Assembly (NCBI GenBank): GCA_035601835.1
Contig: DATNNM010000018.1
Span: 133,890-197,889 of the forward strand
Origin: Candidatus Tumulicola sp.
Lineage (GTDB): Bacteria; Vulcanimicrobiota; Vulcanimicrobiia; Eremiobacterales; Eremiobacteraceae
Length of the DNA stretch: 64,000 bases
Reading direction: 5' to 3'
The notes below the pieces were generated by a model. It saw only the letters and a program-made list of their open reading frames with translations, did not search any database and had not been told where the DNA came from. The position numbers were made by a program, and so were the translations under genes. Each line of letters opens with the position of its first letter. The first letter of the stretch is position 1. Positions 3,365-58,848 of this stretch are shown in pieces.

Positions 3365-3411
3365 TGCGCTAAGAATCTGCCGGGACGCGTGTCGGACGGG
3401 GGTGCACTGTC

Positions 3412-7223: not shown

Positions 7224-7225
7224 TC

Positions 7226-8895: not shown

Positions 8896-11159
8896 CTTTG
8901 CAGGCTCGTTTGGGCCTGCAGGACGCGGCTGAGTTGGTCGCGGTCGACCGGCCTGCCGAACAAGTAGCCTTGCATGAGATCGCAACGCTCCTGTTCGAGG
9001 AACGTGGCTTGTTCTTCTAGCTCGATGCCCTCGCCGACGACCGCCATGCCGAGGCCGTGCCCCAGTCCGATCACGGCACGCGCGATCATGTTGGATTCCA
9101 TGCGCGTGCCGATGTCCTTGACGAACGAGCGGTCGAGCTTCAAGTGCGACGCGTTGTACTGCGTCAGATACGCGAGCGAGCTGTAGCCCGTGCCGAAATC
9201 GTCGATCGCGACGTTGGCACCCATGGCGCGCAGCTCGTTGACGACTTCGACGGTCTTCTCGGGCTTGCTCATCGCCTCGCTCTCGGTGATCTCAAACGTC
9301 AACTTGGAGAGATTGATGCCTGTCGGGTCGACGATGCGCTTGATCCTCTTGGTGAAATCTTTCTGCACGAACTGACGGCCGGAAAGATTGAGGGCCATGC
9401 CGAGATCCAAATATCCCTCGCTCTCGAACTCGCGAATCGTCGTGCATACCTGATGCAGCACCCACTCGCCGATTGGCTCGATCAGTCCGGTGTCGACTGC
9501 GATGCCGAGGAAGCGGGCCGGCGCCAGCAAGCCATGTCTCGGATGCTGCCAGCGCAAGAGCGCTTCAACGGAGTCGAACTCGCGCGTACCGCTCCGTACG
9601 ATGGGCTGGAACACCAAACGCAGTTCGTCCCTGTCGAGCGCTTGGCGAAGGTCGTGCTCGATCTCCAGATGTTCTAGGGCCTCGGAGTGCATGGATTGCG
9701 CGAAGAAGCGGAATGTGTCGCGGCCAATCTCTTTGGCCTTGTACATCGCCGCGTCGGCATTGCGCAGCATCGTTTCCGCGTCGGTGCCATCGAAGGGGTA
9801 GACGCTGACGCCGATGCTGACCGAGAGTTGGAACTTGCGCTCACCCAGTTCAAAAGGCTGACGGCATGTCTCCATAATGCGTTCAACGGCAGGAGTGATG
9901 TTGTCGACCGAGCCCGCATCCGAGAGGACCACGATGAATTCGTCCCCACCTGATCGCGCGACGGTGTCTTCTTGGCGCACGCTGCTCACCAAGCGGCCCG
10001 CGAGCGTGACGAGCACCTCGTCGCCGGCGCCGTGCCCCATCGTGTCGTTGATGCTCTTGAAATGGTCCACGTCGAGGAAGAGCAGCGCCACGTGGTCACT
10101 GCGCCGGGCCGCAAGAGCGATCGCCTTCTCCAAGCTGCGGCGCAGCAAGAGGCGATTGGGCAGATCGGTCAGAGGATCGTGGACCGCGAGGTAGCCCAGC
10201 CGCTCTTCGGCTCGCCGCTGGTCGGACATGTCGGTGATGGACACCACCACGCCGTTGAGTTTGCCGGAGTGGTCGTAGACCGGCGCGGCTGCGCCCGACA
10301 CGATGACGCGCGGACGCGTCGGCGTCTGGATGATGAACTCCTGATGGGGCGTGGCCTTGCCGGTGGAAAGCGCGCGCGTCAGAATGCCCTCGGTCGGCGG
10401 CATCGGCTCGCCGGTGATCTTGAAGAATTTCCAGGTCGACGGAAGTCCTTTCACGCCGATGGTGCGCTGCAGATCCACGCCGGCGATCGCGGCGGCCGCG
10501 CTGTTGGCTTGCCGAATCGTGCGATCGGCGGTGAAGAACAGCAGCCCTTCGCTTGCGCACTCGAATATACGGCTCAGTTTGTCCTCGCTCAGGTGCAACT
10601 CGCGCCTGGCCCTCAGCACTCCGATCGCCATGCTTAATTGGCCCGCGATCGCGCCGGCGAACAACGCTATGTGTTCTGCCGGGATTGCCTTTGCCGGCAC
10701 GGCCAAGAGCAATCCGACGAGTTGCTCGGCGATCCGCAGGGGCACGACCAACGCCGAGTCCAGCGATGCGGCGCGAAGCACGCTCTGAGCGGGTCCCTTT
10801 CCTTTAGCTCGCAGCGCTTTTGCAATTTTCACACGGCTGATGCTCTGCATCAAGCCCGCGTCGTGGACTGATTTGATCAACGCGGCCTTGTTCGCGAAGC
10901 CGTACTGGGCCAGGAGCTCGGAGTCGCCCTTCTCGTCGCGACTGAAGAGAGCCGCTTTGACGATGCCGCCCGAGCTGAGGCATTCCTCGAATGACTCGCT
11001 TGGTAATGCCGTGACGTCGGGATCCATCAGCCGTGCAGCGCATTGACCAAGCGCCGACAACTCGGCCTCGCGCAGCGACAAACGCTTCAGAAGGTCGGCG
11101 TTGAGGCCGGGGGGTCGCTTGCCGCGCTTGACGACTCGTCGAGCGCCGGGCGCTCTCAT
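8892..11159 (-). CDS. GAF-PAS-GGDEF-EAL c-di-GMP turnover protein
   Basis: GGDEF motif SGGDEFIVV. EAL motifs EALLRW, DDFGTGYSSL, KLDRSFV. Last gene of the coupled signalling operon. Confidence 0.85.
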   Translation of the reverse strand: MRAPGARRVVKRGKRPPGLNADLLKRLSLREAELSALGQCAARLMDPDVTALPSESFEECLSSGGIVKAALFSRDEKGDSELLAQYGFANKAALIKSVHDAGLMQSISRVKIAKALRAKGKGPAQSVLRAASLDSALVVPLRIAEQLVGLLLAVPAKAIPAEHIALFAGAIAGQLSMAIGVLRARRELHLSEDKLSRIFECASEGLLFFTADRTIRQANSAAAAIAGVDLQRTIGVKGLPSTWKFFKITGEPMPPTEGILTRALSTGKATPHQEFIIQTPTRPRVIVSGAAAPVYDHSGKLNGVVVSITDMSDQRRAEERLGYLAVHDPLTDLPNRLLLRRSLEKAIALAARRSDHVALLFLDVDHFKSINDTMGHGAGDEVLVTLAGRLVSSVRQEDTVARSGGDEFIVVLSDAGSVDNITPAVERIMETCRQPFELGERKFQLSVSIGVSVYPFDGTDAETMLRNADAAMYKAKEIGRDTFRFFAQSMHSEALEHLEIEHDLRQALDRDELRLVFQPIVRSGTREFDSVEALLRWQHPRHGLLAPARFLGIAVDTGLIEPIGEWVLHQVCTTIREFESEGYLDLGMALNLSGRQFVQKDFTKRIKRIVDPTGINLSKLTFEITESEAMSKPEKTVEVVNELRAMGANVAIDDFGTGYSSLAYLTQYNASHLKLDRSFVKDIGTRMESNMIARAVIGLGHGLGMAVVGEGIELEEQATFLEQERCDLMQGYLFGRPVDRDQLSRVLQAQTSLQS

Positions 11160-12610
11160 CCCCGTTTCCTCGGCGCTCTTCGCTCTCCAATACGTTCACC
11201 GGCACGACGCTGCCGGATAAGGCCCAGGGCGAGGGCGATGGCTTCGGAGACCAGTTCGATGAAGTGGTCGTAGTACTCGTCCACCGGTTGCATGGGCACC
11301 GTCACCAACGCGCCTGCCAGCGAGCCTTCGAGCAGCAACGGCGTCACCGTCATGCGCGCGCAGCCGGCGCCGCGCATCACCGCGGCGTCCGCGCCCTTAG
11401 CTCCCTCGGCCTTCAGCGTCGTCGGGCCGCTGCGGCGTGCGAGCTTCGACAGAAGATCCGGGTGGTTGAAGAACGTCGCGAGACCGGCGCGTTTTCCGAT
11501 CGGACCGAAGCGCGTGGTCAGCTCAAAAGAGTCGCCGCGAGAGAGCGCAAAAATGGCGCCTGATTCGATGCGTGCCGCGGTCATGCAGTCGGCCGCCAGG
11601 GCATCGGGAATCGCTTTTGCCTTGGTCGTCGTGACGAGCTTGGCGGCGCCCGCCAAAAACGCGAATCGGATCTCTTGAACGGCAAGGCGGCGTATGAGGC
11701 GGGCGTTCAACTCGGCTTGCAACTCGGCTTGGCGCAGCTTCCTCGCCGAAAAATCGCTCAGCTCGATCGGTTTGTCTGGAGCGCGCGCCCTGGATCCAGG
11801 CGACGTGATCGCACGAGCGACGGCGTTCACCAATCCTTGAGACTGCGTAGAGCGGACCACGAGCTCGCTTGCCCCTGCCCTCTTTGCGAGGTCTTGGTCC
11901 TCCGGGTCACCGATGACGGCGGAGTACAACAGCACGGGGATGTGCGAGAGTTTGGGATCGCGGAGCACGGCCTCGCACAAACCGAGCCCGTCAAGCCCGG
12001 GCATGAAGACATCCGAGACGACGGCTTGCGAAGGTTTCTCGCGCAAAGATTTGAGAGCCTCGAGTCCGTTGGCCGCCCCGCGGGTCGCAAACCCGGCGGC
12101 CTCGAGGCTGAAGCGCGTGAGCTTCAACTGGAGCGGGTTGTCGTCCACCACGAGGATGGTCTTCGCGCCGGCCACCACCCCGGCGAAGCCAAAGGAATGG
12201 GGTAGGTAGGTGCGCACGACCTCGATGAGCCGCGCGATTTCGACGGGCTTGGCCAAGAAGTCGACAAAGCCGACCTGCACGGCCTTCGCGAGGTCGAGCG
12301 CCGGCTGCAACCCGGACATCGCCACAACCGGCAGGCGATCGCCGCCAGGAATGGCGCGATAGTCGCGTGCGAGTTGAATAGCGTCCGTGTCCTCGATCAT
12401 GAGATCTTGGATGATGAGGTCCGGCAGGGATAACCGAGCGAGGGCCAGAGCTGTGGCTCCGCTGGATGCTTCCTTGACCAAAAAGCCTTCCTTCTCGAGC
12501 GCGATCCGGCAGAGCTTCCGGACGATAGCGTTCCCCTCGACCAGGAGGATGGTCGACGGCGCTGTTGTCTTCGCTTGCGACGCCACGTTAACTCGCCCCG
12601 GGCCCTTCAA
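11156..12610 (-). CDS. Tandem receiver (REC-REC) protein with C-terminal GAF-like domain
   Basis: Two CheY-like blocks (ILLVEGN...DLIIQDLMIED and ILVVDDN...AVVSDVFMPGLDG). 4-nt overlap with the downstream GGDEF-EAL gene. Confidence 0.75.
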   Translation of the reverse strand: MKGPGRVNVASQAKTTAPSTILLVEGNAIVRKLCRIALEKEGFLVKEASSGATALALARLSLPDLIIQDLMIEDTDAIQLARDYRAIPGGDRLPVVAMSGLQPALDLAKAVQVGFVDFLAKPVEIARLIEVVRTYLPHSFGFAGVVAGAKTILVVDDNPLQLKLTRFSLEAAGFATRGAANGLEALKSLREKPSQAVVSDVFMPGLDGLGLCEAVLRDPKLSHIPVLLYSAVIGDPEDQDLAKRAGASELVVRSTQSQGLVNAVARAITSPGSRARAPDKPIELSDFSARKLRQAELQAELNARLIRRLAVQEIRFAFLAGAAKLVTTTKAKAIPDALAADCMTAARIESGAIFALSRGDSFELTTRFGPIGKRAGLATFFNHPDLLSKLARRSGPTTLKAEGAKGADAAVMRGAGCARMTVTPLLLEGSLAGALVTVPMQPVDEYYDHFIELVSEAIALALGLIRQRRAGERIGERRAPRKRG

Positions 12611-12839
12611 CGGGGCCCAGCGTCGCGATGACCTCGCGCTGCGTCTCTTCGATGGTCGCGAGCAGTTGCCGGCCGCTCTTCAAGATATCGTCCAAAAACT
12701 CGCGTTGCTGATCCGTCAATGGCCCGGCCTTGCCATCGCGCAGCAGCTGGGCGAAACCGATGACGGGACCGAGCGGCGAACGCAAGTCGTGGAACATCTT
12801 GTGCAAGGATGCTCGGAGATCGGCCGTGCTATGACTCAC
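12588..12839 (-). CDS. Stand-alone HisKA/DHp-domain protein (no ATPase domain); candidate histidine phosphotransferase
   Basis: H-box FHDLRSPLGPVIGFAQLL followed by a second helix (REFLDDILKSGRQLLATIEE). A GTG at 12839 preceded by AAGGUGAGG is the preferred start. The ORF-track start at 12959 would overlap the upstream REC gene by 131 nt. Confidence 0.5.
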   Translation of the reverse strand: MSHSTADLRASLHKMFHDLRSPLGPVIGFAQLLRDGKAGPLTDQQREFLDDILKSGRQLLATIEETQREVIATLGPVEGPGAS

Positions 12840-13236
12840 GACCCTCACCTTTAGTGTTGGATCGCAGAGCGGCGGGCAAGTACTCGTCGACCTCCGCGAC
12901 AAAACGCTGCGGAACGATCGGTTTTGAGATGTAGCCGTCGAAGCCGGCGGCGAGCGCATGCTCTCGGTCGCCCACCATGGCGGCCGCGGTCACCGCGATC
13001 AAACGCAGTTTCTGCGTCGCAGGATCCGTTTTCACGCGCCGCGCCATTTCATACCCGTCGATGCCGGGCATGCGGACGTCGGTCAGCACGAGGTCGAACG
13101 ATCCGGCCTTGATCGCAGCGACGCCGGCCAGACCATCCATCACAGAGGTGGTGCTGTGGCCGAACGCCTGGAGCAGATACGTCATAAGATGCAGGTTCGC
13201 CTGATTGTCTTCGACGATCAAAATTCTGGCCGGCAT
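12829..13236 (-). CDS. Single-domain response regulator (CheY-like)
   Basis: ILIVEDNQ, DLVLTDVRMPGIDG and ISKP receiver motifs; 135 aa. Confidence 0.85.
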   Translation of the reverse strand: MPARILIVEDNQANLHLMTYLLQAFGHSTTSVMDGLAGVAAIKAGSFDLVLTDVRMPGIDGYEMARRVKTDPATQKLRLIAVTAAAMVGDREHALAAGFDGYISKPIVPQRFVAEVDEYLPAALRSNTKGEGRES

Positions 13237-29361: not shown

Positions 29362-30660
29362 TTACGTACCTCTGAGCGTCTGCCAGATCAACACGAGATT
29401 GAGGCCGATGATGACGACTGCAGCGGCGATGCCGAGCGTGCGCATCAGCGGCCTCGTGATCGCGTCGCCCATGATCGACCTCTTGTTGGTGAAGAGCAGC
29501 AAAACGACGATCGGCAGCGGCAGGACCAGACTGAGGACCACCTGGCTGAGCACCAGCGCCTGAGTCGTGTTGACGCCGATGGCGACAACGATGACAGTCG
29601 GAATCATCGTAACCAGCCGGCGAACCCACATCGGGACCGTGAACCCTACGAAGCCCTGCATGATGACCTGACCGGCCATCGTGCCGACGACCGAACTGGA
29701 TATCCCCGAGGCCATCAACGATAACAGAAATACTGCCGCCGCCGCCGATCCGAGCAGCGGCGTCAGCGTTTGGTAGGCTGATTCGATCGTCGCAACGCCG
29801 GGGTGGCCGCCGAAATGGAACACCGCGGCGGCCATATACATCATCGCAAGATTGACGATGCCCGCGATCCCGAGCGCGATGAGCACGTCGATGTTCGAGA
29901 ATCTGATGACCGTCGCCATCTCGTCTCGATTGCCGGGGACGATCCGGTCCTGCGTCAAGCTTGAGTGCAAGTAGACGGCGTGGGGCATGACGGTCGCGCC
30001 GATGATGCCGACCGCGAGGAGCAAAGCGGTGGGACTTCCCAGCCACGGCACGACCGAGTGATACGCGATCTGGCCCCAGTCGGGTCGCGCGAGCAAGGTC
30101 TCCACGACGTAGCAGACCGCGATGATCCCGACGAGCCCTGTGATGAGCGCTTCGATCCTGCGAAAACCCGTCGACTGCATGAGCAGGATGGCGTAGGTCG
30201 CGATGCCGGTGATGATGACGCCGACGAGCAGCGGGATGTGGAACAAGAGGTTGATCCCGATGCTCGCGCCGAGGAATTCGGCAAGATCGGTCGCCATCGC
30301 CCCGACCTCGCTCACGAGCCACATCGATATCGCCGTGGGCTTGGAGAAGCGCTCGCGGCAGACTTCGGGCAGGTTTTTGCCGGTCACGATGCCGAGCTTC
30401 GCGGAGAGGGCTTGGAACAGCATCGCTGAGAGATTCGCGAACACCACCACCCATAGCAGCTTGTAGCCGAACGCCGAGCCGCCTTGAACGTTGGTCGCGA
30501 AGTTGCCGGGATCCATGTATGCGACCGAAGCGATGAATGCGGGTCCTGCAAACGGCAGCAAGGCCATGAGCCCTTTGCGGCGACCCTCCAAGACTTCTCT
30601 GGCGGCGGCGCGCGTGCGCTCGCTCAGCGGATCGAGCGTGGCAAGGTCCGCGCCGCTCAT
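29362..30660 (-). CDS. mntH: NRAMP-family divalent metal (Mn2+/Fe2+) transporter
   Basis: DPGNFATN signature and about 11 TM segments. 4-nt overlap with the upstream DtxR-family regulator. Confidence 0.9.
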   Translation of the reverse strand: MSGADLATLDPLSERTRAAAREVLEGRRKGLMALLPFAGPAFIASVAYMDPGNFATNVQGGSAFGYKLLWVVVFANLSAMLFQALSAKLGIVTGKNLPEVCRERFSKPTAISMWLVSEVGAMATDLAEFLGASIGINLLFHIPLLVGVIITGIATYAILLMQSTGFRRIEALITGLVGIIAVCYVVETLLARPDWGQIAYHSVVPWLGSPTALLLAVGIIGATVMPHAVYLHSSLTQDRIVPGNRDEMATVIRFSNIDVLIALGIAGIVNLAMMYMAAAVFHFGGHPGVATIESAYQTLTPLLGSAAAAVFLLSLMASGISSSVVGTMAGQVIMQGFVGFTVPMWVRRLVTMIPTVIVVAIGVNTTQALVLSQVVLSLVLPLPIVVLLLFTNKRSIMGDAITRPLMRTLGIAAAVVIIGLNLVLIWQTLRGT

Positions 30661-31358
30661 CGCGTGGACTTTCGCGGCTTTTCGATCGCGATCATGATCG
30701 AGGCGGCTACGCTTGGCGCTATCAGGCTGGCGCCTCGTGCGCTAAGGATCCTGATCGAGCCTTTCTCGCGGCCGGTGACGGTCGCTTTGTGACCGGGCAA
30801 CACACCCTGCGCGGACAACTGCCGGACGACGCTTGCGTCTCGATCCGGAATGCTGTCGACTCGGATGCGGGTTCCCGGTTTGACGTCGGCCAGCGACTGA
30901 CTCCGCGAGCGGCCCGCACCCTGGCCGGCAGTCACGATGGGATGCCCGTGCGGATCAACGCGAGGATTGCGCAGGAAGCGTGCCAGCCGCTCGGCGACGT
31001 CATCGGAGATGACGTGCTCGATCGCTTCGGCTTGGGGGTGCAGGTCGTCCAAGGGCACGTGCAGCGTTCGGTGGAGAAACGTCTCGATCAGGCGATGCCG
31101 CCGCATCAAACTAAGCGCCAAGCGCCGGCCACGCTCGGTGAGCTCGATGCGCTCGACGCGCGACGCGGCGCGCTTCACGAGCCCTTCTTTTTCTAACAGG
31201 CGCCGCGACTTCGTGACCGCGGCGCGTGAGACGGTCAGGTAGCGCGCGAGATCCGCACCGGCCACCGGCGAGTCGTTGCCGAGCTGATAGATCGCCTTGA
31301 CATAGTCTTGGCGTGCTCGTTCCGGGGATCTATCCGGCCTCGCCCCAGGTGTTAACAT
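30657..31358 (-). CDS. mntR: DtxR/MntR-family metalloregulator with C-terminal FeoA/SH3-like domain
   Basis: N-terminal wHTH (DYVKAIYQL...ADLARYLTVSRAAVTKSRRLLEKEGLV), a metal-binding helix region, and a C-terminal FeoA-like tail. Confidence 0.85.
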   Translation of the reverse strand: MLTPGARPDRSPERARQDYVKAIYQLGNDSPVAGADLARYLTVSRAAVTKSRRLLEKEGLVKRAASRVERIELTERGRRLALSLMRRHRLIETFLHRTLHVPLDDLHPQAEAIEHVISDDVAERLARFLRNPRVDPHGHPIVTAGQGAGRSRSQSLADVKPGTRIRVDSIPDRDASVVRQLSAQGVLPGHKATVTGREKGSIRILSARGASLIAPSVAASIMIAIEKPRKSTR

Positions 31359-31382
31359 TGGTTAACAAGAAATACGGACGCC

Positions 31383-32045
31383 TTGGAACAAGCTCCTGCC
31401 GCCCCGTCCACGGCGGTCCTTCAACGGCGCGCGCCGGCGCTGCGTCAGGCGCTGGTTTTGGAATGGATCACCCTAGCGTGGATGGTGGTCGAAGCCGGGG
31501 CGGCGCTGTGGGCCGCCCTCACAGCGGGTAGTCTCTCGCTCTTGGCATTCGGGCTTGACAGCGGCGTCGAACTCGCTTCGGCGAGCGTGCTCGTATGGCG
31601 GCTGCGCAGCGAACTCGAGCATCACTGCGAGGATGCCGAATGTCAGCGCACCGAGCGGGTCGAGCGCAGCGCTGCGCGCATCACGGCCGTTCTGCTCTTC
31701 GCCTTGGCGGTGTACGTCGGCGTCGCGGCCGTGCTGAAACTGTTTGCTCACACCGGCGAAGCCGTATCCGTGCTCGGACTGGCGGTGACGATCGTCTCGA
31801 TACCCATCATGATCGCCTTGGCGAACGCCAAACGCAGATTATCCGCGGCGCTCGATAGCGGCGCCCTGCGCGCTGACGCCGCGCAGGGAACCGCCTGTTG
31901 GTATCTGGCTGTCGCCGTGCTTGGCGGAATTGCGCTTCAAGCTTGGTTCGGAGCGTGGTGGGCAGATGCCGTGGCATCGCTCGCAATCGTCGCGTTCCTG
32001 GTTCAAGAGGGCCGCGAGGCGTGGCAAGGCATCCGCTGCTGCTGA
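31383..32045 (+). CDS. Cation-diffusion-facilitator-like membrane protein (TM domain only)
   Basis: Six hydrophobic segments, acidic/His-containing loops, and a C-terminal CC. Divergent from mntR. The start codon (TTG) is uncertain. Confidence 0.55.
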   Translation: MEQAPAAPSTAVLQRRAPALRQALVLEWITLAWMVVEAGAALWAALTAGSLSLLAFGLDSGVELASASVLVWRLRSELEHHCEDAECQRTERVERSAARITAVLLFALAVYVGVAAVLKLFAHTGEAVSVLGLAVTIVSIPIMIALANAKRRLSAALDSGALRADAAQGTACWYLAVAVLGGIALQAWFGAWWADAVASLAIVAFLVQEGREAWQGIRCC

Positions 32046-32054
32046 TCGATGGAG

Positions 32055-32468
32055 TTATTGCTCCAACTGGCCATTGACCATCCAGTCAATGCCGTATTTG
32101 TCGGTGAACATGCCGAACATCGCGCCCCAGAAAGCCTTCTCCAACGGCACCTCGACCTTACCGCCTTGAGAGAGAGCGTCGAAGAGTCGCTTGGCTTCGC
32201 TCACGTCTTTCGTGCCGAGCGAGAGGGATATGGCGCCATCGCCGTATTGCGTAGTCGGCTGAGCGTCCGACGCCATGAATTTGACAGCGGGCGAGGTGAA
32301 GGTGGAATGCATTATCCTGTTGCCCAGCTCTGCCGGCAGACCCATTTCCGCCGGCGCTTCTTTCCAACGCATGATTTGGCCGATCTCCCCGCCGAAAATG
32401 CGCTTATAGAAATTGAGGGCCTCTTCGCATCGGCCGCCGGTGATGAAAAGATAGGGCACGAATTCCAT
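32055..32468 (-). CDS. PhnB/YjdN-like VOC (glyoxalase-fold) protein
   Basis: MEFVPYLFITGGRCEEALNFYKRIFGG...FGMFTDKYGIDWMVN. AGGAGA SD upstream of ATG 32468. Confidence 0.75.
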   Translation of the reverse strand: MEFVPYLFITGGRCEEALNFYKRIFGGEIGQIMRWKEAPAEMGLPAELGNRIMHSTFTSPAVKFMASDAQPTTQYGDGAISLSLGTKDVSEAKRLFDALSQGGKVEVPLEKAFWGAMFGMFTDKYGIDWMVNGQLEQ

Positions 32469-32577
32469 GCGTGGTTCTCCTGTTCGGTTTTGAGTGAGGG
32501 ACGTGCGGGTTCCGCGCCCATTCACCCCGTGCCTCTATGAAAAGTTGCTCATCAGCACAAAGGCGAATATATTTCAC

Positions 32578-33093
32578 ATGAGCACCTTCGAAGAGAAGCC
32601 GGAAACGGGGCTGGGGCGCGCGCTTTTTGAAGAGCTGGTGTGGATCCACGGTATGATCCGCCATGATCTTGCAACGGTACGCCAGCTTGCGGCCGACATC
32701 GCGACCAGCATGCCGGCTCACGAGGTGACGGCCGAGATTAAGGACCTTAAGCGGGATAGCAAGCTATGGCAGCTCAAGGTGGGATGTCTGCGCTACTGCC
32801 GTTTTGTCCACTCGCACCACAACCTCGAAGACGCTGCCTTTTTCCCGTCGCTGCGAGCCGCCAATCCTGCCCTTAATCCGGTAGTCGACAAACTTGAAGA
32901 CGACCATCGCAAGGTTTCCGATTTATTGGATGCAGTCGAAGAAGGCGCCGACGTCCTCACCAAGATCGATAGCGATGCCGTGCGGCGCAGCATCGCCGAC
33001 ACGCTGACCGTGCTCGGCGAACGTCTCCTCGAGCACCTCGACTACGAGGAACTGAACGTCGGCCCGACATTGCGCCGGACGCAAGGGATCTAG
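32578..33093 (+). CDS. Hemerythrin-like domain protein
   Basis: His/Glu/Asp ligand pattern (HHNLEDAAFFP, LEDDHRKV). Start set at ATG 32578. Confidence 0.6.
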   Translation: MSTFEEKPETGLGRALFEELVWIHGMIRHDLATVRQLAADIATSMPAHEVTAEIKDLKRDSKLWQLKVGCLRYCRFVHSHHNLEDAAFFPSLRAANPALNPVVDKLEDDHRKVSDLLDAVEEGADVLTKIDSDAVRRSIADTLTVLGERLLEHLDYEELNVGPTLRRTQGI

Positions 33094-37655: not shown

Positions 37656-38159
37656 TCAGGGCTTTACTACGATCGCCCCGCGCATGCCGTCACCCAAGTG
37701 GTAGGCGCAGCCGAAGTAAAAGATGCCGACGGTCTTCGCGGTGAGGATCTGCGATTTTCCGCCATGTGACCGCAAAACGCCGCTACTCCACTCGCGCGCA
37801 TCAAGCTGGCTGCCGGATCGCTTGGTTGGATCGCCGGCGAATCGATAATTCTTCGGGACAGTTTGACCGCCGACAGCAAATCCCGTTGCGGTGTGGATCG
37901 AGTCGTCGGTGTTGACGAATTGGATGCGATCGCCGACGCGCACGGTGGCTACGGCAGGATCGTATCCGCGAAGTTTTCCTTGTATTGGCCGAACCTTCGG
38001 ACGAAAATCAAGGTCTGCGTTGATGATCTGCAACCGAGGTCGATGAGCGGCTGACGCCGCGAGAACCGCGGTGGCGGGGATGTGGTACGCTGCAGGCGCT
38101 GGTGCGAGCAGCGAAAACAGGACCAGGCCCAGCAGCGTCCGCAAGACACCTTTCAGCAT
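37656..38159 (-). CDS. Exported cupredoxin (plastocyanin/azurin-like type-1 copper protein)
   Basis: Signal peptide. Copper ligands: His in DSIHTATG and C-x2-H-x4-M in GCAYHLGDGM. Confidence 0.75.
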   Translation of the reverse strand: MLKGVLRTLLGLVLFSLLAPAPAAYHIPATAVLAASAAHRPRLQIINADLDFRPKVRPIQGKLRGYDPAVATVRVGDRIQFVNTDDSIHTATGFAVGGQTVPKNYRFAGDPTKRSGSQLDAREWSSGVLRSHGGKSQILTAKTVGIFYFGCAYHLGDGMRGAIVVKP

Positions 38160-38231: not shown

Positions 38232-38594
38232 TTAGGGTGCGGGCGCGTCGACGTAGGTGAGCGGAACCACGCGCGATATCCCCGTGAGTTCGAAGATCCG
38301 CTGCGCAGCGCTTCCGGATGCCGCGATGACGCGCACGGCGAGATGCGGTCGTTCGGCGATCTGGAGCAGCGTATTGACGCAATACGAGTCCAAGTACGTG
38401 CACCCGGTCATGTCGATGACCACCGGACGGCCTGCCTGCGCTGCTTCCGCGATTGCGTTTCGAAAGAGCGGCCCGTTGAACAAATCTATCTCGCCCCTGA
38501 CTTTGATCAGCTCCTGATCTTCAAGGGAGATGCGGTCGAAAGCGGCCTGGGGTTGAATGCTGGGTTCGCGCTTCTTGGTCGGCATTAGGGCCAC
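38232..38594 (-). CDS. STAS-domain protein (anti-sigma-factor antagonist-like)
   Basis: SpoIIAA-like pattern (IKVRGEIDLFNGPLFRNAI...VVIDMTGCTYLDSYCVNTLLQ). Confidence 0.7.
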   Translation of the reverse strand: MALMPTKKREPSIQPQAAFDRISLEDQELIKVRGEIDLFNGPLFRNAIAEAAQAGRPVVIDMTGCTYLDSYCVNTLLQIAERPHLAVRVIAASGSAAQRIFELTGISRVVPLTYVDAPAP

Positions 38595-38658: not shown

Positions 38659-39168
38659 TCAGGGCTTGGCGGCGATCAGGTCCATTTCGGTCTTGATCTC
38701 GCGCTCGGTCATCGGCCCGATCTGCGCCGCCTTGATCTTTCCGGACGGTGCGATGAAAATGTGCAGCGGCAGGGCATTGACCCCGTAGGTGGCGCCGACG
38801 CGGCCGTCAGTGTCGGAAAGGATCCCATACTGCAGCCGGTACTTCTTCACGAATGCGAGCGCCGGCTGTGTCTGGTCGAGTTCGTCGATGCCGACCACCA
38901 CCACGTTACGCTTGGCGTAGACGCGCGCGATCTTGCTCAGCCACGGCGCTTCTTCTTTACACGGGTCGCACCAGGACGCGAAGAAGTTCAGATACACGCC
39001 GTGACCTTTGAAGGAAGACAGCGCGATCTGACCGCTGCCGTTTGCGATGACCGGCAACGTGAAGTCCGGAGCCGGCTGGCCCGGCATCGGCGGTTGATCG
39101 GCGCGCGACGGTGCGAACGCGGCGAAGCTCAGCGCAAGCGCGACGAGCGACCCCAGCGCGCGTTTCAC
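38659..39168 (-). CDS. Exported TlpA/ResA-like thiol-disulfide oxidoreductase
   Basis: Signal peptide and the thioredoxin motif FFASWCDPCKEEAP. 4-nt overlap with the upstream peroxiredoxin gene. Confidence 0.85.
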   Translation of the reverse strand: MKRALGSLVALALSFAAFAPSRADQPPMPGQPAPDFTLPVIANGSGQIALSSFKGHGVYLNFFASWCDPCKEEAPWLSKIARVYAKRNVVVVGIDELDQTQPALAFVKKYRLQYGILSDTDGRVGATYGVNALPLHIFIAPSGKIKAAQIGPMTEREIKTEMDLIAAKP

Positions 39169-39728
39169 TGCTGTTGGTGAGCCTCGAGCCAGTCTAGCGT
39201 CTTGTTGACGTTGCCGAGCGGACTCCAGTCGAACACCATGTGGGCTACCTTGCCGTCGCGACCGATGATGAAGGTCGTGCGTTTGGCGTAGATCTTGCCC
39301 GCGTCTTCGAGCGTCACCCCATAGGCCTTGATCGCCTCGGCCTTGGGATCGGATGCAAAGCGCTGGGGCGCCTTTTCTTCCTTTTGAAAGCGGGCGAGCG
39401 TGTCGATGGGGTCCGGGGAGATGCCCACGACCTCGGCGCCGAGCTTGTCGAAGTCCGCCAGCCTGGCGGCGTAGGCTTTCGCCTCCACGGTTCAGCCGGC
39501 GCTGAAGGCTAGGGGGAAGAAATACAGGACGACGATCTTCTTCGATAATTCGTTCTTGAGATTGAAAGGAACGGTCTTGCCGTCAAGGACCGATTGACCG
39601 ACGATGTTGGGCGCGACCGAACCCTCCGGCAAGATGCCGGCGGATTCGTCCGCGGCGGCAAAAACGGGGGCTGCGGCCAAGATCGCAGCCGCGGCGGCGG
39701 CTCCTATGAATCGACTGAAGGAATGCAT
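39165..39728 (-). CDS. Exported PrxQ/BCP-type peroxiredoxin with in-frame UGA (Sec) at the peroxidatic position (39492..39494)
   Basis: ORFs 39492..40088 and 39165..39488 share one frame. Read-through gives KIVVLYFFPLAFSAG-U-TVEAKAY...GAEVVGISPD, the Prx active-site block. Start set at ATG 39728, followed by a signal peptide. Confidence 0.7.
39455..39469 (-). promoter_or_regulatory. Candidate SECIS hairpin for the peroxiredoxin UGA
   Basis: CCGCCA-GGC-UGGCGG on the mRNA strand, starting 23 nt after the UGA. Confidence 0.35.
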
Positions 39729-39785
39729 GCTGACAGGATTTGAAGATATGCTCAGAGTTTCCCGTCGCGCAACCTTGGAAAAAGC

Positions 39786-40832
39786 ATGAACGTTTTCATC
39801 TTCAGCCTCGCAGCGCTCGCTCTCTACGCCGCTCCGGGCCCTACGATCGCGCCTTCCGGGGCGACTGATCTCGAAACGCTGCGCGTGCGCAGCGCGGCGG
39901 TGGCGGCCGACTGCAAGTCGCACTTCGTCGACATCGACGCGCGCTCGGGTTTGGGGGCAGCGCTCTACTCGCGCGTGCAAAGCGACGCGGCGCGCATCGA
40001 CGCGGCTGCGCTGGGAAAAACCGACGCTCGTTTCACCGCCGCTGATCTCACGATGCTCGTCGATCTCGACCGCAGCGTGATCGATCAACTTTCGACCGGA
40101 GTCTATCGCGATCTCGGCTCCGTGCGTGGCGCCGGCGCGGTGTTGTTGCGTTTGAGCGACGCCGGCAAGCCGCAGCCGGTGGCTGTCTTCGTGCCGCCGT
40201 CATATGGAGTTTCCGAGAAGGTCCCGTCGCTGATCATCTATCTCCACGGCAAAGACGAGCACGAGGGCGAAGTCATCGCATCGCATACGATCCGCCAGCT
40301 CGCCACCGACTCGGAGAGCGTAGTCGTCGCGCCGTTCCTCAACGGCAAGGACCTGATGTCGGACCGCAGCGTCACCGAACTCTACCGGCTCGTCGATCTC
40401 GTCGAGCAATCGTTCAGGATCGACCGGCGCTCCGTGTACCTGGCCGGCCACTCGCTCGGCGGCTTCGCGACGTTTAAAGCCGCAACCGTGCATCCGGATC
40501 GGTGGACCGCGTTGCTCGTGGCTGCGGGCGCGGTCGCGGAAAGCGACAGCGACTCGGTCGCGCAGCACCTGCGCGGCAAGCCCGTCTACTTGGTGGCCGG
40601 CTCAGCGGACAAGCAGGTCACGGCGACCTACATGCGCCAGCTTGCCGCCTGGCTCGCGCTCCACGGCGCCTTGCCCAGCTACTACGAGCAGGCGGGTGCA
40701 GCGCACGACTTCGCCATGCTTGCTCCCGCGCTGGGCCGAGCATGGCGCGATATGCTCGCCGGGGTACGCAGCCCCGTGCCCGACACGTTCGCGCAGCCAA
40801 GCGTGCCCCCGCAGACGCCGAAGCCGTTTTAG
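39786..40832 (+). CDS. Secreted alpha/beta hydrolase (esterase/peptidase S9-like)
   Basis: Signal peptide and the nucleophile elbow GHSLGG. Confidence 0.7.
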   Translation: MNVFIFSLAALALYAAPGPTIAPSGATDLETLRVRSAAVAADCKSHFVDIDARSGLGAALYSRVQSDAARIDAAALGKTDARFTAADLTMLVDLDRSVIDQLSTGVYRDLGSVRGAGAVLLRLSDAGKPQPVAVFVPPSYGVSEKVPSLIIYLHGKDEHEGEVIASHTIRQLATDSESVVVAPFLNGKDLMSDRSVTELYRLVDLVEQSFRIDRRSVYLAGHSLGGFATFKAATVHPDRWTALLVAAGAVAESDSDSVAQHLRGKPVYLVAGSADKQVTATYMRQLAAWLALHGALPSYYEQAGAAHDFAMLAPALGRAWRDMLAGVRSPVPDTFAQPSVPPQTPKPF

Positions 40833-52487: not shown

Positions 52488-53546
52488 GTGTATCCCTACC
52501 TGCTCGAACCGCAACTCAAACCGCTCATCTGGGGCGGCGACGCTTTGGTCCGGCACTACTACAAGACGGGCGACCCGAACGCCAAGTACGGTGAGTCGTG
52601 GGAGTGCTGGGATCAGAACCGGACGCTCAATGGTCCGCTGACCGGGAAAACGGTGGCTGATTTGCGAGAGCGGCTCGGCGCGGAGCTGATGGGGCCGCTG
52701 GATCCCAGCCGCATTTTTCCGGTGCTCACGAAGATCATCGATGCGCGCGACTCGCTGTCGGTCCAAGTGCATCCGGGCGATGCCCACGCGCGAGCGCACG
52801 AGCACCAGCCAAACGGCAAGACCGAGTGCTGGTACATCCTTTCGGCTGCCGCGGGCGCGCATCTCATCCTGGGCTGGAAGCGCGACACCACCCGCGATGA
52901 GTATTTACAGCGCGTGGCTGACGGCTCGCTCACCGAGCTCCTGCGCCCCGTCCCCGTCAAGCCCGGCGACGTCTTTTACCTGCCTGCCGGCACTTTACAC
53001 GCCATCGGCGCCGGCATCCAACTCTTCGAGACGCAGCAAGCCAGCGACCTCACCTATCGGATCTTCGATTGGAATCGCGTTGACGCCCAAGGCCGGTCGC
53101 GCGAACTGCACGTCCAAAAAGCCGCAGACGTTTTGGATTATCGCCGATCTGAGGCTGGCGCGCTCAACCCGCTGGAATACCGTACGGGCGGACTGAACCG
53201 CGCTGCGCTAGTAGCGGATCCGCGCTTCACCCTTGAGCGCATCGTTGTGACAAAAACTGGGGGCCAGATCGACCTCGACGGCATGCCGCTCATTCTGTGG
53301 GCGCTTGACGGTGGAATCGAGATTTCAGCCGGCGCTGAGTTGGTGCATTTGCCGCCTTACGCGACGGCGCTGATCCCGGCCGCTGCCGGAAGTGTCAAGG
53401 TGCGCTCCGGTGACGCAGATGCTAAGCTGCTCGCCGCGGCCGTTCCCGCGGACGCCCGTGCCTTAGCGCGAAGGTTTGCAGCGGCCGGCGTGGATGGCGC
53501 AAGCGTCGATAGGTTCGCGGCCCAGTTCTCTACGATCCAGCCTTGA
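52488..53546 (+). CDS. manA: Class I mannose-6-phosphate isomerase
   Basis: YPYLLEPQLKPLIWGG, LSVQVHPGD and ECWYIL motifs. GTG 52488 (or 52473) taken as the start. Confidence 0.75.
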   Translation: MYPYLLEPQLKPLIWGGDALVRHYYKTGDPNAKYGESWECWDQNRTLNGPLTGKTVADLRERLGAELMGPLDPSRIFPVLTKIIDARDSLSVQVHPGDAHARAHEHQPNGKTECWYILSAAAGAHLILGWKRDTTRDEYLQRVADGSLTELLRPVPVKPGDVFYLPAGTLHAIGAGIQLFETQQASDLTYRIFDWNRVDAQGRSRELHVQKAADVLDYRRSEAGALNPLEYRTGGLNRAALVADPRFTLERIVVTKTGGQIDLDGMPLILWALDGGIEISAGAELVHLPPYATALIPAAAGSVKVRSGDADAKLLAAAVPADARALARRFAAAGVDGASVDRFAAQFSTIQP

Positions 53547-54171
53547 CAAGCGCGGGGAACTGCTCGCGCAAGTGCTTCAGCTTCGGCATGTCGTTGAAGA
53601 CGATGTACGGGTTGTAGGGGTTGTGCGCAAGGAAGTGCTGGTGGTAGTCCTCGGCGGCATAGAAAGCCTTGAGCGGCACGACCTGCGTCACAATCGGATT
53701 GCTGAACTTCTTCTCGCGCTCGAGCTGCTTGATGTATGACTCGGCCGCGAGTTTTTGCTGCGGGGTCGTGTAGAAAATCGCCGAGCGATACTGCGTTCCC
53801 GTGTCCGGGCCTTGGCGGTTGAGTTCGGTCGGGTCGTGCGCTACCAGGAAATACACCTGCAGCAACTGGTTGAACGAGATCTTTGAGGGGTCGTACGTCA
53901 CCTCGACGGATTCGGCATGGCCGGTCTCGCCGGTGCTAACGATCTCATAGTGCGCGGTGGCGGCATTGCCGCCGGCGTACCCGGAGACCGCGTTCGAAAC
54001 GCCCTTCAGCGACTCAAAGACCGCTTCCACGCCCCAGAAGCACCCGCCGGCGAGCACCACTTTTTCGCTTCCGCTTGGCGTCGTGGTGGCCTGGCCCGCA
54101 GCCGTGCATCCGAGCAGCAGGCCCGCGAGCACGGCAGCTGCTAGGCTAATTCTTCTTCTCATCATGTCCAT
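53530..54171 (-). CDS. msrA: Peptide methionine-S-sulfoxide reductase, exported lipoprotein form
   Basis: GGCFWGVEAVF active-site motif and N-terminal lipobox LLLGCTAAG. Confidence 0.9.
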   Translation of the reverse strand: MDMMRRRISLAAAVLAGLLLGCTAAGQATTTPSGSEKVVLAGGCFWGVEAVFESLKGVSNAVSGYAGGNAATAHYEIVSTGETGHAESVEVTYDPSKISFNQLLQVYFLVAHDPTELNRQGPDTGTQYRSAIFYTTPQQKLAAESYIKQLEREKKFSNPIVTQVVPLKAFYAAEDYHQHFLAHNPYNPYIVFNDMPKLKHLREQFPALVKAGS

Positions 54172-55010: not shown

Positions 55011-55265
55011 TCGGAAACCTTGATGCCGCGGACCTCCGTGGCTTTTTCATCCGGTGTGGTACCCTTACCACTATCCGAAAATGCTGACAGATGCTGACCG
55101 AATTTTGACCGCATTGCGGCGTCGACTTTGGTCGCCGCGCTCACGTCTAGCGCCGGCACGACGTGACTGTAAACGTCAAGCGTCATACGAGTTGTGCTGT
55201 GGCCAAGGCGATCCGCAACTACTTTGGGGTGAATGCCTTCGCTCAGCATTTCAGTCGCTGCGGTG
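55011..55265 (-). pseudogene. Tyrosine recombinase C-terminal remnant (copy 1)
   Basis: AATEMLSEGIHPKVVADRLGHSTTRMTLDVYSH (catalytic Tyr region). Homology to copy 2 stops at 55265, where Rhs sequence begins. Confidence 0.75.
55025..55047 (+). terminator. Intrinsic terminator after tRNA-Val(GAC)
   Basis: GCCGCGG-ACCT-CCGTGGC followed by TTTTT. A perfect-stem copy recurs at 60613..60635. Confidence 0.6.
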
Positions 55266-58200
55266 GATGCCAACAATCGGATCAAGACCGTGACGAGCAA
55301 TCCGACCGGCGTCTCACTGGTTTTTACCTACGACAGCGGGACCAACTGCGGCACGGGTGATCTCTGCTCGGCTCAGGAGTCAGACGGAAAGATTTGGAGC
55401 TATCAGTATCAGGATTTGGGGCCAAATCCGGGTGATCAGCACAACCTCACTCGGGTCACCGATCCGCTCGGGCACGTAGTAGAGCAAACCGCTTTCGCGC
55501 AGGTTCTGCAGTTCGGCAACTACTGTTGCATTAGCGTTCCGACGAGCCAGTCGACCGATGGCGGCCAGAATACGCTGACCTTCTCCTACGCCCTTTCGAA
55601 CAATGGGTATAAGACGTGGCTTCATACCACGGTTACCGATGGGCTGAATCGAACGACAGTTTATTATTCCGACAGCATACGCTTTGTGCTCATTAGCGTC
55701 ACGGGGACCATGACCGGCGGTGGCAATCAATCTGTCACCTACAACTACGATCCATACTTCCGCTTGATTTCGCGTGCCGATGGCAATAGCCACGCGACCA
55801 CATATGGCTATGGGCGCGACACAACCGCAAGCGGTCTTGGTTACTCATACATCATCCAAGCCATTCCCGGTCCGAACTCGATCACGGAGCAACTGGCGAG
55901 TGGGCTTAACCGCGTAACGAATATCTCATACTACGCGCTCGGTGACCTGCGACAAGATCTCCCAAACACCATTTCAGTCCCATCCGTCGACACCCCGGGC
56001 AACACGGAAACGATAACGGACACATTCGGCACCAACGGACTACTCACATCGCAAGCGACTCAGGGTTACATCGGGGGTTCCGCAACGACCTACACCACTG
56101 GATTTTCCTACGATACCAAGGGTCGACTTCAGCAGATTACGGGTCCGCGGACCGACGTCGTTCAGCACACCACTGTCGCATACTACCCAGACACTGACTC
56201 CGACATGGCGCGCCGCGGCCAACCCCAAACCATTACCGATGCACTCAGCCATGTCACCACGCTTGCAGCCGATGCAGCTCCTAACAATACGTACAACGTT
56301 TTTGGGAACCCTCTGAGCGTGGCGGACCCCAACGGTGTCGTTACCGACTTGAGCTATGATGCGCGCGGGCGAACGCTTTCCTCAACCATCAAAGGAGTGA
56401 CGGGCGATCCGACAGCGCTGACAACCTCTTACGTTTACGACGCCGCCGGCAGGCTCATCAAAATCATACGACCGTTGCTCAACGGGTTGAGTCTAACCTA
56501 CGATACGAGCAATCGGTTAACGGACATGACCCGGTTCACCGCCAGCACGAATCTCCTGGAGGAACAAATCGTGCTTGGCTACGATGTCATGAGCCAGTTA
56601 ACTTCCCGGCTCGCTCAGGCATGCACGACGCCGGCAGTTTCGTGCAGCGCGTGGAGTACAAAGCAACAAGAGAGCTTCCAGTACGATAGCTTCGGGCGTG
56701 TGAAAGAAATCGACCACCCGGTCCCGAGCGGATCAAAAATACTCTACGGCTACGATTTGGCGGGCAACCTTAACTCAATCCAAGACGAAAATCACAGCAC
56801 GGCGAACTCGACATACAACTATGATTTTGCCAACCGCCTCACCAGCGTCGTGCAGACGTTAGCGGGCGCGCCGGGCAATCAAATTACGACCAGCTTTGGG
56901 TACGACCTACACGACAATCTGAACTCGCTTATCGACCCCAACAGCAATCAGACCACGTACGCCTTCGACGACTTCGATCGGGTAAGGCAGCAGACGTCGC
57001 CGGTGAGCGGAGTCAGCACCTATGCCTATGATCCTGACGACAACCTGCTGACGTTCTCAGACGCCAATGGAGCGATGACCACGCGCAGTTTCGATGCGCT
57101 AGACCGCGTGCTGTCGGCGATGTCTGTGCGCAGCGGGCTCACGACAGAGACCGTGAATTGGGCCTACGACGACGCCACCAGCGGCAACTTCGGCATTGGG
57201 GTCTCAAGAACATCACAGACCCCTCGGGATCGACGACCTATACCTACGACCGGCGCGGGCTGCTCAAAACCGAAGCGCCCACTATCTTGGGCAACGCGTA
57301 TTCTCTGGCCTATGCTTACGACGGCAACGCCAACCGCACGAGCATTACATACCCGGACGCCAACGCCGTCATGTATACCTTTGATTTTGCCGACCGGCCT
57401 CTCTCGGCGACTTTGGGAAGCACGACCTTTGTGTCGAGCGCTACATACGCGCCGTTCGGGCCGCTGACCACCCTTTCGTTCGGGAACGCAAGGACACAGA
57501 CGCTTACTACGACCTCCGCTATCGCCCGACCGAGAACAAGTTGTGTTGCGCGAGACACGGAGCGTCGCTCGCGGACTACACGTATGCCGAGGACGGGGTT
57601 GGCAATATCACGGGAATCACCGACACCGTGAGCACGGGATTCAACCGGACGTTTGCCTACGACGACCTAAATCGGCTGATCACGGCCAATTCTGGCGCCT
57701 CCCTGTGGAATTCCGGCTCCTACACCTACGATTCCATGGGCAACATGAAGACCTTGGGGTTGGGCAGTGCTCGGACGGCGACATTTAGCTATTCAGGCAC
57801 GCTTCCAAAACTAACGTCGGTGACAGAGAACGGCACGCCGCGATCTGTGGCCTACGACGCGGTGGGCAACGAGACGGCTGTGGGCACGGCGACGTATGCC
57901 TATGGCACGCGCAACCAGCTCGAATCGGGCGACGCGCTCACCTACACCTACGACGGTTGGGGGCGGCGGCTTGTGACCTCTGGCAGTTTGGGCACCCGCT
58001 ACTCGTTCTTTACTCCTGGCATGACGTTGCTCTCGGAATCAGCACTGACGATTTCCGGAAGACCTGCGATCGCTTACAAATACATTTGGTTCGCGGGCAG
58101 GCCCATCGCGCAAGTGGACGGCGCGGGCACGCACTGGACCTTCTCCGATCACTTGGGAACGCCTGAGATTCAAACCAATAGTAGCGGCGCGATCGCTTAC

Positions 58201-58848
58201 CAGGCAGAGTACGAACCGTATGGAAAAGTCTTCGCGTTGCGCTCGGGCGACGTGCACCAGCCGCTACGACTGCCAGGCCAAGTGGCGGAACAATTCGACA
58301 CTGGGGCGAATGGTGCGACCGAGCGAAACTATAATGTGTTTCGGTGGTATCGGCCGGGATGGGGTAGGTATTCGCAGGCAGATCCGATTGGGCTAAACGG
58401 CAATTATAATCTTTACCGGTACGTGGAGGACGATCCTGTATCTCTTGATGACCCCTTCGGTCTCAGGCATCTCACGCCGTGCGAAAAGTTAGTGCTCCGT
58501 CCCTACATTCCGCAAATCGACTTGAACAATGCGAATATTCACGAGGGTGAGGTTCCTTGGTGGCTCGGTAAAGACTATGGGGGAGTCACGCTAGAAAATA
58601 ACATCTATTTTCGTCCCGGCGTATATGACCCCACGACCTCTTATGGGTTGGCTCTGCTCGGGCACGAATCGTTTCATGTTGGTCAATACCGAACGGGGAT
58701 GACGCGTGCCGATTATCTGTGGGAAGGATTCTGGCATGGCGGTGGTCAGGAAAATAGGTACGAAAAACCGGCGTACGCCTTGCAACGACGCATCTATTCA
58801 GATTTGGTCAAAGCAGGATTTGAGGGCTGCGAACTATGCGGACGATAA
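55233..58848 (+). pseudogene. Rhs/YD-repeat polymorphic toxin, N-terminally truncated, two frameshifts, DUF4157-like HExxH C-terminal domain
   Basis: YD repeats throughout (YDARGR, YVYDAAGRL, YAYDPDDNL). Reading frame changes at about 57200 and about 57506 relative to copy 2. Core ends at DPVSLDDPFGL (58464). Confidence 0.8.

Follow-up and report, generated by a model that had tools for sequence, protein, structure and literature searches.

On the minus strand of a 64,000-nucleotide stretch from Candidatus Tumulicola sp. (GenBank assembly GCA_035601835.1, contig DATNNM010000018.1, positions 133,890 to 197,889; hereafter the window), a peroxiredoxin (Prx) reading frame is interrupted by a TGA triplet at the position of the peroxidatic cysteine. 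Is this a broken gene, or does the TGA encode selenocysteine (Sec)? Based on sequence comparison, we consider it very probable that the locus is one gene encoding a BCP/PrxQ-like peroxiredoxin that acts outside the cytoplasm and uses Sec as its peroxidatic residue (Table 1). The organism belongs to the Vulcanimicrobiaceae in the phylum Vulcanimicrobiota, for which Eremiobacterota is another name.

The frame runs from an ATG at 39728..39726 to a terminal TGA at 39167..39165, and the TGA at 39494..39492 is the sole interruption of its 187 codons. Translation of this minus-strand frame confirmed what a preliminary description of the locus had proposed, namely that the TGA lies between two same-frame open reading frames (ORFs); the read-through product, a signal peptide followed by KIVVLYFFPLAFSAG-U-TVEAKAYAARLADFDKLGAEVVGISPD, matches that description exactly. 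The full 187-residue product has the N-terminus MHSFSRF and reads MHSFSRFIGAAAAAAILAAAPVFAAADES...KIVVLYFFPLAFSAG-U-TVEAKAYAARLADFDKLGAEVVGISPD...LDWLEAHQQQ. When U is written as Cys, the Pfam AhpC-TSA profile (PF00578) matches residues 38-163 (E=4.3e-27; 95 bits against a cut-off of 26), so the domain spans the stop codon.

Automatic annotation has cut this single intact gene in two. GenBank entry HXM19589.1 ('redoxin domain-containing protein', 107 aa) covers the C-terminal fragment only and leaves a 78-aa stub unannotated, while metagenome gene callers return a 72-78-aa ORF without a Pfam match, followed by a Prx fragment of at least 107 aa. The N-terminal part proper consists of 78 codons from the ATG at 39728. 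The 198-aa ORF at 39492..40088 (TTG start), which had rightly been called spurious, is a mechanical stop-to-stop extension that overlaps a divergent esterase gene (39786..40832).

We then compared the locus with related copies from genomes (one genome per GTDB species) and metagenomes. The genome scan returned five loci, in four Eremiobacterota metagenome-assembled genomes (MAGs) and in one that is labelled Candidatus Binatus; each has TGA at the same codon (5/5). The metagenome scan added 24 further loci at 51-65% identity, again with TGA in all, four of which carry a second tandem Sec-Prx copy. Across the whole family, TGA occupies the peroxidatic codon in 38 of 38 copies (genomes and metagenomes, 51-93% identity, the four second tandem copies included), and none of the 38 reading frames contains another stop or a frameshift. 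Besides the MAGs, the copies derive from soil and peat metagenomes. The four closest database proteins cover the C-terminal half only, and their contigs all show a same-frame upstream ORF beyond the TGA. Conservation of a single TGA codon in 38 copies is far beyond chance.

Since gene callers and GenBank annotate only fragments, the locus could be read as a pseudogene or as an assembly or sequencing error, in which a nonsense mutation had split a Cys-containing Prx gene whose fragments are now decaying. However, the same TGA recurs in all of these independent copies, the frame is otherwise unbroken and the catalytic residues are intact. Over the 30 codons upstream of the TGA, the ratio of nonsynonymous to synonymous divergence (dN/dS) is 0.07-0.47, although dS relative to the window gene is saturated (~1 or more), indicating that both gene halves have been kept by selection. 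The conservation of codon and frame refutes this explanation, and we give it next to no chance. The two findings that the preliminary description had named as fatal to its proposal did not materialize: no orthologue carries a sense codon other than Cys or Sec at this position, and the two halves are neither separated by frameshifts nor released from purifying selection.

The family looks so far largely confined to Eremiobacterota. Its only genome match outside that phylum is the locus labelled Candidatus Binatus (L010, DASRXC010000138.1), whose protein is identical to that of metagenome locus L021 and groups inside the Eremiobacterota sequences; mis-binning or recent transfer may explain the label. 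The tandem paralogues lie at L018 641..1678, L020 7..960, L024 2501..3544 and L025 2432..3475. At these loci the first copy, which bears a signal peptide, ends in TGA, and the second resumes the same frame two codons on from a GTG, with its own U and selenocysteine insertion sequence (SECIS) and no signal peptide. The TGA between the copies could be a true stop with re-initiation, or it could be read through to give a double Prx.

The identity of the residue at the TGA is indicated by Cys-containing homologues. That Sec can take the place of Cys is well documented, both for peroxiredoxins and for further oxidoreductases with the thioredoxin fold. The nearest Cys-containing homologues, 32-45% identical, are signal-peptide-bearing 'peroxiredoxins' of ~175-195 aa from Novosphingobium, Burkholderiaceae and metagenomes. 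The U column corresponds to the invariant Cys of FTxGCTxEA in all eight aligned Cys-containing homologues (32-39% identity), as had been predicted for such an alignment. In the joint alignment of Sec and Cys forms, P72 and R150 are invariant and the T/S column of residue 76 is conserved, which bears out the earlier view that U79 sits in a canonical Prx block in place of the peroxidatic Cys.

We next considered whether the genome can decode UGA as Sec. On its plus strand, the window contains a gene for an FdnG-type formate dehydrogenase alpha subunit, which ORF callers likewise split, into pieces of 194 aa and 797/809 aa. The read-through product is ...EQQARV-U-HGPTVASLAACFGRGAMTNHW, with U in QARV-U-HGPTV and a Tat signal (RRDFLK). 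The protein matches TIGR01553 (formate dehydrogenase-N alpha) over its whole length (1312 bits against a cut-off of 814) and aligns across the TGA with E. coli FdnG and with Desulfovibrio FdhA, which contains Sec (PDB; 1e-146 to 1e-148). A hairpin, GGUGGCCA-GUU-UGGCCGCC, begins 11 nt after its UGA. Downstream of the gene lie genes for an FdhE-like protein (6435..7223), a 4Fe-4S subunit (7226..8014) and, on the minus strand, an NrfD-like protein.

A third candidate came from locus L091, which is 100% identical to window positions 1..13221 and reaches 7.8 kb beyond the window start. It encodes an AhpC/TSA-like protein with the motif W-U-P-F-C, a pattern known from UxxC proteins of the 'Prx-like thiol:disulfide oxidoreductase' kind. 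Annotation by gene callers is limited to a fragment of 134 aa, and a hairpin, CCGCC-AGUU-GGCGG, begins 11 nt after its UGA. The UGA at the canonical Sec site of FdnG, together with the W-U-P-F-C gene, suggests that Sec decoding is available in this genome, a conclusion for which the support is indirect. In a rough scan of the window for in-frame TGAs flanked by coding-like sequence, four sites were found. Those at 39492 (the Sec-Prx) and 3994 (FdnG) are real; the sites at 6756 and 5220 were rejected, as they lie on the strand opposite the fdh genes.

These data also bear on decoding of the UGA by a route other than Sec, through a reassigned code (UGA as Trp or Gly) or near-cognate read-through inserting Trp, Cys or Arg. 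Such a route would fit the fact that genes of the Sec machinery were not seen directly in the window, its flank or the related loci. Against it, TGA is the commonest true stop in the window, terminating 18 of 36 well-supported genes, so the genetic code is not reassigned; the codon falls at a residue where only Cys or Sec works and where homologues carry Cys; a conserved hairpin follows the UGA; and in FdnG of this genome, UGA occupies the canonical Sec site. We reject reassignment and consider non-Sec decoding as a whole extremely unlikely.

If the UGA encodes Sec, a SECIS should lie just downstream, and a hairpin CCGCCA-GGC-UGGCGG had been noted 23 nt after the UGA. It is indeed present at 39469..39455, with conserved synonymous sites, but it is probably the second of two hairpins rather than the whole element. 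An RNAalifold consensus from 20 distinct sequences defined a conserved RNA element 8-39 nt after the UGA (32 nt) that consists of two adjacent hairpins, H1 and H2. In H1, the four inner pairs never vary, G-C/G-U exchange and one double change occur in the outer two, and the loop differs between sequences (GAAA, CAAG, UAAG or GAAG); its codons GAG and GCC are invariant in 32 distinct sequences. In H2, the stems are invariant in 28 distinct sequences, the loop G[G/U][C/U] varies (GGC, GGU, GUU or GUC), and the four-fold degenerate Ala codons of the stem are fixed as GCC, GCC and GCG.

Codon usage points to selection on the RNA. At conserved residues, mean codon entropy is 0.43 bits in the 12 hairpin codons versus 1.23 elsewhere (32 sequences; Mann-Whitney p=1e-5); in an earlier set of 10 sequences, a single codon was used in 7 of 11 invariant-residue columns within the hairpins versus 7 of 52 elsewhere. 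One subclade has exchanged Arg (AGG) for Ser (AGU), a radical residue change that leaves both bases where stem meets loop (A and G) unaltered. All Sec forms share the peptide EAKAYAARLADF, whereas Cys forms vary there, as expected if the RNA, not the protein, is constrained. A common search model for bacterial SECIS elements has a G-containing apical loop roughly 16-37 nt after the UGA. H2 fits this model, with a G in its loop 28 nt after the UGA. Furthermore, the apices of H2 and of the FdnG and Prx-like SECIS elements have CCA-G(U/G)(U/C)-(U)GG in common, as would be expected for recognition by one SelB. H2 is thus the probable SelB-binding apex, H1 may be a compact spacer that fills the gap before it, and the SECIS probably comprises both hairpins.

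With respect to the type of peroxiredoxin, the Cys forms have a second conserved Cys ~39 residues downstream of the first (ExC[R/Q]xKF), where the Sec forms read APQRF. No Sec-form family member has a Cys in its mature Prx domain, and a resolving Cys is found neither at +5 (helix alpha2) nor at ~+36 (helix alpha3). A Cys-free mature protein would make the enzyme a 1-Sec type, as the preliminary description had suggested. Because 1-Cys BCPs exist, loss of the resolving Cys does not exclude membership of the BCP/PrxQ group.

The assignment to PrxQ/BCP was supported by a profile search. When the family profile was compared with the PDB, BCPs made up the top eight matches (3drn at 5e-28; 5epf, 2ywn, 5iph, 3gkk and 3hjp among them) and the best Prx1 type reached 2e-21; in a single-sequence PDB search, Prx1-type and BCP-type structures were tied. 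The protein passed neither the NCBIfam Bcp model (NF006960; 69 bits against a cut-off of 140) nor the PrxQ model (NF053650; 45 bits against 260). By these scores, the family is a divergent BCP-like clade and not an equivalog. The Sec-peroxiredoxin of Eubacterium acidaminophilum had been cited as a precedent, which is valid in that Sec-peroxiredoxins are a known class; membership of its PrxU type was rejected (NF040737; 43 bits against a cut-off of 270).

A true selenoprotein could also serve a purpose other than peroxide reduction, acting with a TlpA-like protein as an envelope Sec thiol:disulfide or sulfenic-acid reductase on protein substrates, or as a redox sensor. Scores below the cut-off of every NCBIfam Prx equivalog and the loss of the resolving Cys of the Cys-form relatives would agree with this, as would the precedent of PrxL, which was studied alongside the Caulobacter peroxiredoxin PprX and had no detectable peroxidase activity (PMC3322552). 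PrxL-type proteins, however, lack the full Prx catalytic set (PMC3322552), whereas P-x3-T/S-x2-U and the Arg are invariant here, and the best structural relatives are active BCPs. We therefore favour a peroxidase and regard the alternative as unlikely.

The signal peptide on the Prx, claimed from the outset, is predicted well beyond the window protein. In its N-terminal segment, a positively charged n-region is followed by a hydrophobic core (Kyte-Doolittle maximum of 2.3 over 12 residues) and an AxA-type site. Of the 29 other first-copy orthologues whose 5' end is complete, 27 show the same arrangement of positive start, hydrophobic core (maximum of 1.9-3.4) and AxA-like site. Three low-scoring first-copy orthologues probably reflect the choice of start codon. 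There is no twin-arginine motif, so export would use the Sec translocation pathway.

Alternatively, the Sec-Prx could be cytoplasmic or membrane-anchored, with the hydrophobic segment an uncleaved anchor or a start-codon artefact and a cytoplasmic thioredoxin as reductant. There is no clear Shine-Dalgarno sequence upstream of the ATG at 39728, the second tandem copies in L018, L020, L024 and L025 have no signal peptide, and inspection and hydropathy are what identify the signal peptide. On the other side, the hydrophobic N-terminus and AxA-like site are kept in the orthologues despite divergence, the Cys-form relatives also bear signal peptides, and the TlpA-like partner described below has a signal peptide of its own that is lost exactly when it is fused behind the Prx. 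Export is thus the better-supported location, and we judge a cytoplasmic or anchored enzyme highly unlikely.

Directly downstream of the Sec-Prx gene lies a gene for a TlpA/ResA-like thioredoxin-fold protein, which matches the NCBIfam ResA and DsbE subfamilies below cut-off. Its GTG start overlaps the Prx stop codon by 4 nt (GTGA). A gene encoding the NFFxSWCxPC motif is found directly 3' of the Prx in 17 other loci, and in six (L004, where the fusion spans 2501..3484, L005, L007, L015, L017 and L019) this domain continues the Prx chain in frame on its C-terminal side and lacks a separate signal peptide. Fusion, coupling and the lack of a resolving Cys suggest that the TlpA-like protein provides the resolving and recycling thiol. 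That it resolves the selenenic acid of the Sec-Prx seems to us fairly likely, somewhat above an even chance.

Taken together, these features suggest the following mechanism. SelB with Sec-tRNA(Sec) would bind the hairpin and insert Sec at the UGA, and the signal peptide would direct the pre-protein out via the Sec translocon. In the envelope, the U79 selenolate, activated by P72, S76 and R150, would reduce H2O2 or organic hydroperoxides and become selenenic acid. As the mature Prx is free of Cys, the first Cys of WCxPC in the co-translated or fused TlpA-like thioredoxin would resolve the selenenic acid, giving a selenosulfide and then oxidised TlpA, which a membrane electron transporter of the DsbD/CcdA/ScsB type would re-reduce.

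Our more general, tentative proposal, to which we give slightly less than an even chance, is that Eremiobacterota possess a selenium-dependent peroxide module outside the cytoplasm, composed of an exported Cys-free Sec-Prx, a resolving TlpA-like thioredoxin (fused to it in several species) and a bipartite SECIS. As part of this proposal, a GNRA-type hairpin would be stacked on the SelB-binding hairpin, so that the apex would be 28 nt, not ~19 nt, away from the UGA.

Several observations weigh against this picture. With regard to decoding, no selA, selB, selD or tRNA-Sec gene was found in the 64-kb window, the 7.8 kb beyond its start or the related loci: Pfam annotation of 40 window ORFs yielded no selA, selB or selD and no DsbD or CcdA, and ARAGORN detected no tRNA-Sec in the window, L001-L010 or L091. 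With regard to the SECIS, H2 has no covariation support, although counting is uninformative because its stems never vary. Folding energies are no better than those of shuffled sequences in this GC-rich context (z -0.3 to -1.3), so thermodynamics alone cannot support the element, and an Rfam gathering scan of the window together with a permissive scan (E<=10) of 39300..39600 gave only tRNAs and noise, with no SECIS family. H2 also starts 22 nt after the UGA, compared with 11 nt in the genome's two other selenoprotein genes. With regard to the partner, a TlpA-like gene is missing from the first 900 nt downstream in five loci for which at least 1 kb of 3' sequence exists, and no DsbD, CcdA or ScsB is among the annotated window genes. 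Finally, signal peptides were judged by inspection and hydropathy only.

On balance, the data support a mis-annotated bona fide selenoprotein gene that appears to encode a Sec version of a PprX-like envelope Prx, coupled and sometimes fused to a TlpA-like reductant. Current understanding is not overturned, and the novelty is minor in that the Sec-peroxiredoxin class is already known; what is unusual here is the combination of predicted export, Cys-free 1-Sec chemistry, Prx-TlpA fusions and a long-spaced two-hairpin SECIS. The one characterised envelope pathway for peroxide reduction, ScsB-TlpA-PprX, would be extended to a selenium-dependent form, and the Prx-TlpA fusions offer a Rosetta-stone argument for who reduces whom. 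If the proposed Eremiobacterota module is real, no Sec-Prx/TlpA hybrid of the envelope would have been described before it, and the soil phylum that carries it is not known to use Sec; we found no relevant literature linking Eremiobacterota, WPS-2 or Vulcanimicrobium with selenocysteine. The finding further suggests a role for selenium supply in the way a widespread phylum of soil and peat defends itself against oxidative stress. As the Sec-Prx and FdnG genes are both split in annotation, Eremiobacterota selenoproteomes are under-counted.

Table 1. Positions of the Sec-peroxiredoxin gene, its elements and associated genes (window coordinates unless stated otherwise).
Feature	Position	Strand	Description and basis
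Sec-peroxiredoxin gene, complete	39165..39728	-	187 codons including U79; predicted signal peptide and BCP/PrxQ-like Prx domain; translation, Pfam, PDB profile search
Predicted Sec-type signal peptide	39657..39728	-	MHSFSRFIGAAAAAAILAAAPVFA; likely cleavage after VFA; inspection and hydropathy
P72 codon	39513..39515	-	Invariant column in alignment of Sec and Cys forms
S76 codon	39501..39503	-	T in most orthologues; T/S column conserved in alignment of Sec and Cys forms
UGA codon read as Sec, U79	39492..39494	-	Peroxidatic position of PxxxS/TxxU; TGA in 38/38; Cys in 8 aligned homologues
SECIS hairpin H1 (putative)	39470..39486	-	G-GAGGC-GAAA-GCCU(A)C-G; family (C/G)GAGGC-GAAA-GCCU(A)CG; starts 8 nt after UGA
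SECIS hairpin H2 (putative)	39455..39469	-	CCGCCA-GGC-UGGCGG; first base is the 23rd nt after UGA (22-nt spacer); loop 28 nt after UGA
R150 codon	39279..39281	-	Conserved catalytic Arg; invariant column in alignment of Sec and Cys forms
TlpA/ResA-like thioredoxin-fold gene	38659..39168	-	169 aa; predicted exported, own signal peptide; WCDPC; Pfam AhpC-TSA/Redoxin/Thioredoxin
FdnG-type formate dehydrogenase alpha selenoprotein gene	3412..6438	+	TGA 3994..3996; halves are ORFs 3412..3996 and 4009..6438
Third selenoprotein candidate, AhpC/TSA-like	L091 18585..19139 (~5.4-5.9 kb before window position 1, same contig)	-	...YRGHW-U-PFC..., TGA

Adjoining the Prx-TlpA pair downstream are genes for a STAS-domain protein (38232..38594, minus strand) and a plastocyanin/azurin-like exported copper protein (37656..38159, minus strand). 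TlpA proteins are known reductants in copper-site maturation, and with a copper protein gene nearby, an alternative or additional client of the TlpA-like protein is conceivable. An MsrA (PMSR, E=2e-60) at 53530..54171 on the minus strand has a lipoprotein-type N-terminal signal (…AGLLLGC…), and would be another extracytoplasmic antioxidant enzyme in need of a TlpA-like reductant. A metal-homeostasis cluster at 29362..33093 encodes an Nramp transporter, a DtxR-family repressor with a FeoA domain, a cation-efflux protein and a hemerythrin-domain protein. At 55233..58848 on the plus strand, two RHS-repeat proteins are encoded, one of 744 aa and one of 435 aa whose C-terminal region is of the eCIS-core/RHS kind; cluster members of very different lengths in the same MAG suggest a polymorphic-toxin locus.

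The metagenome scan also revealed a second, abundant clade of Sec-containing BCPs with the motif YFFP[RK]A[DN]TPG-U-T[IV]E (L036-L089, ~38 soil-metagenome loci), in which TGA again occupies the peroxidatic Cys codon. A GUU-looped hairpin (for example UCGCGG-GUU-CCGCGA), with a G-C or A-U closing pair, lies 11 nt after the UGA. In five other loci of the same scan, the corresponding codon is TGC (Cys).

Among known systems, the closest in function to the proposed Sec-Prx/TlpA pair, with PprX compared by its described features, is the envelope pathway ScsB -> TlpA -> PprX of Caulobacter crescentus, in which periplasmic PprX is reduced by TlpA and TlpA by ScsB (Cho et al. 2012, PMC3322552). PprX, which occurs in cyanobacteria as well as alpha- and beta-proteobacteria, is a signal-sequence-bearing Prx of the BCP/PrxQ subfamily whose resolving Cys is distant (PMC3322552). 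Both systems have a BCP/PrxQ-type Prx without CxxxxC, here predicted to be exported, and a TlpA-type thioredoxin partner, known here from the genes. The Cys-form relatives of the Tumulicola protein are also signal-peptide peroxiredoxins of alpha- and beta-proteobacteria, matching the reported distribution of PprX. In contrast to PprX, the predicted peroxidatic residue is Sec, APQRF replaces the Cys-form resolving Cys motif (ExC[R/Q]xKF), translation of the TlpA-like gene is coupled to that of the Prx or the two are fused, and the host phylum is Eremiobacterota; the window annotation shows no ScsB/DsbD gene near the Sec-Prx.

Two further systems resemble parts of this arrangement. In Streptococcus pneumoniae, CcdA -> Etrx1/2 (TlpA-like) -> MsrAB2 forms an extracellular repair system, and Haemophilus Prx-Grx is a hybrid that fuses peroxidase and reductant in one chain. 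The likeness to the former lies in a surface or envelope antioxidant enzyme fed by a dedicated TlpA-like thioredoxin, and to the latter in the single chain; both differ in enzyme family (Msr and Prx5-Grx, respectively) and in having no selenium.

With respect to the Sec residue, the natural comparison is PrxU of E. acidaminophilum, reportedly described by Sohling et al. in 2001, a cytoplasmic enzyme of the Prx1/AhpC type. The two have in common a UGA-encoded Sec for the peroxidatic Cys of PxxxT/SxxC, the AhpC/TSA fold and a SECIS just downstream in the coding region. They differ in that the Tumulicola Prx is BCP-like, predicted to be exported and Cys-free, and its SECIS probably has two hairpins and an apex 28 nt beyond the UGA. 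Sec-peroxiredoxins with T/SxxU, PrxU included, are among the commoner bacterial selenoprotein families (PMC1794560, PMC13188914). The second Sec-BCP clade described above (L036-L089) shares with the Tumulicola protein the BCP-type Prx, the UGA at the peroxidatic Cys and a hairpin after the UGA, but is only 31-45% identical to it and has a canonical DTPGC-type motif and a hairpin at 11 nt.

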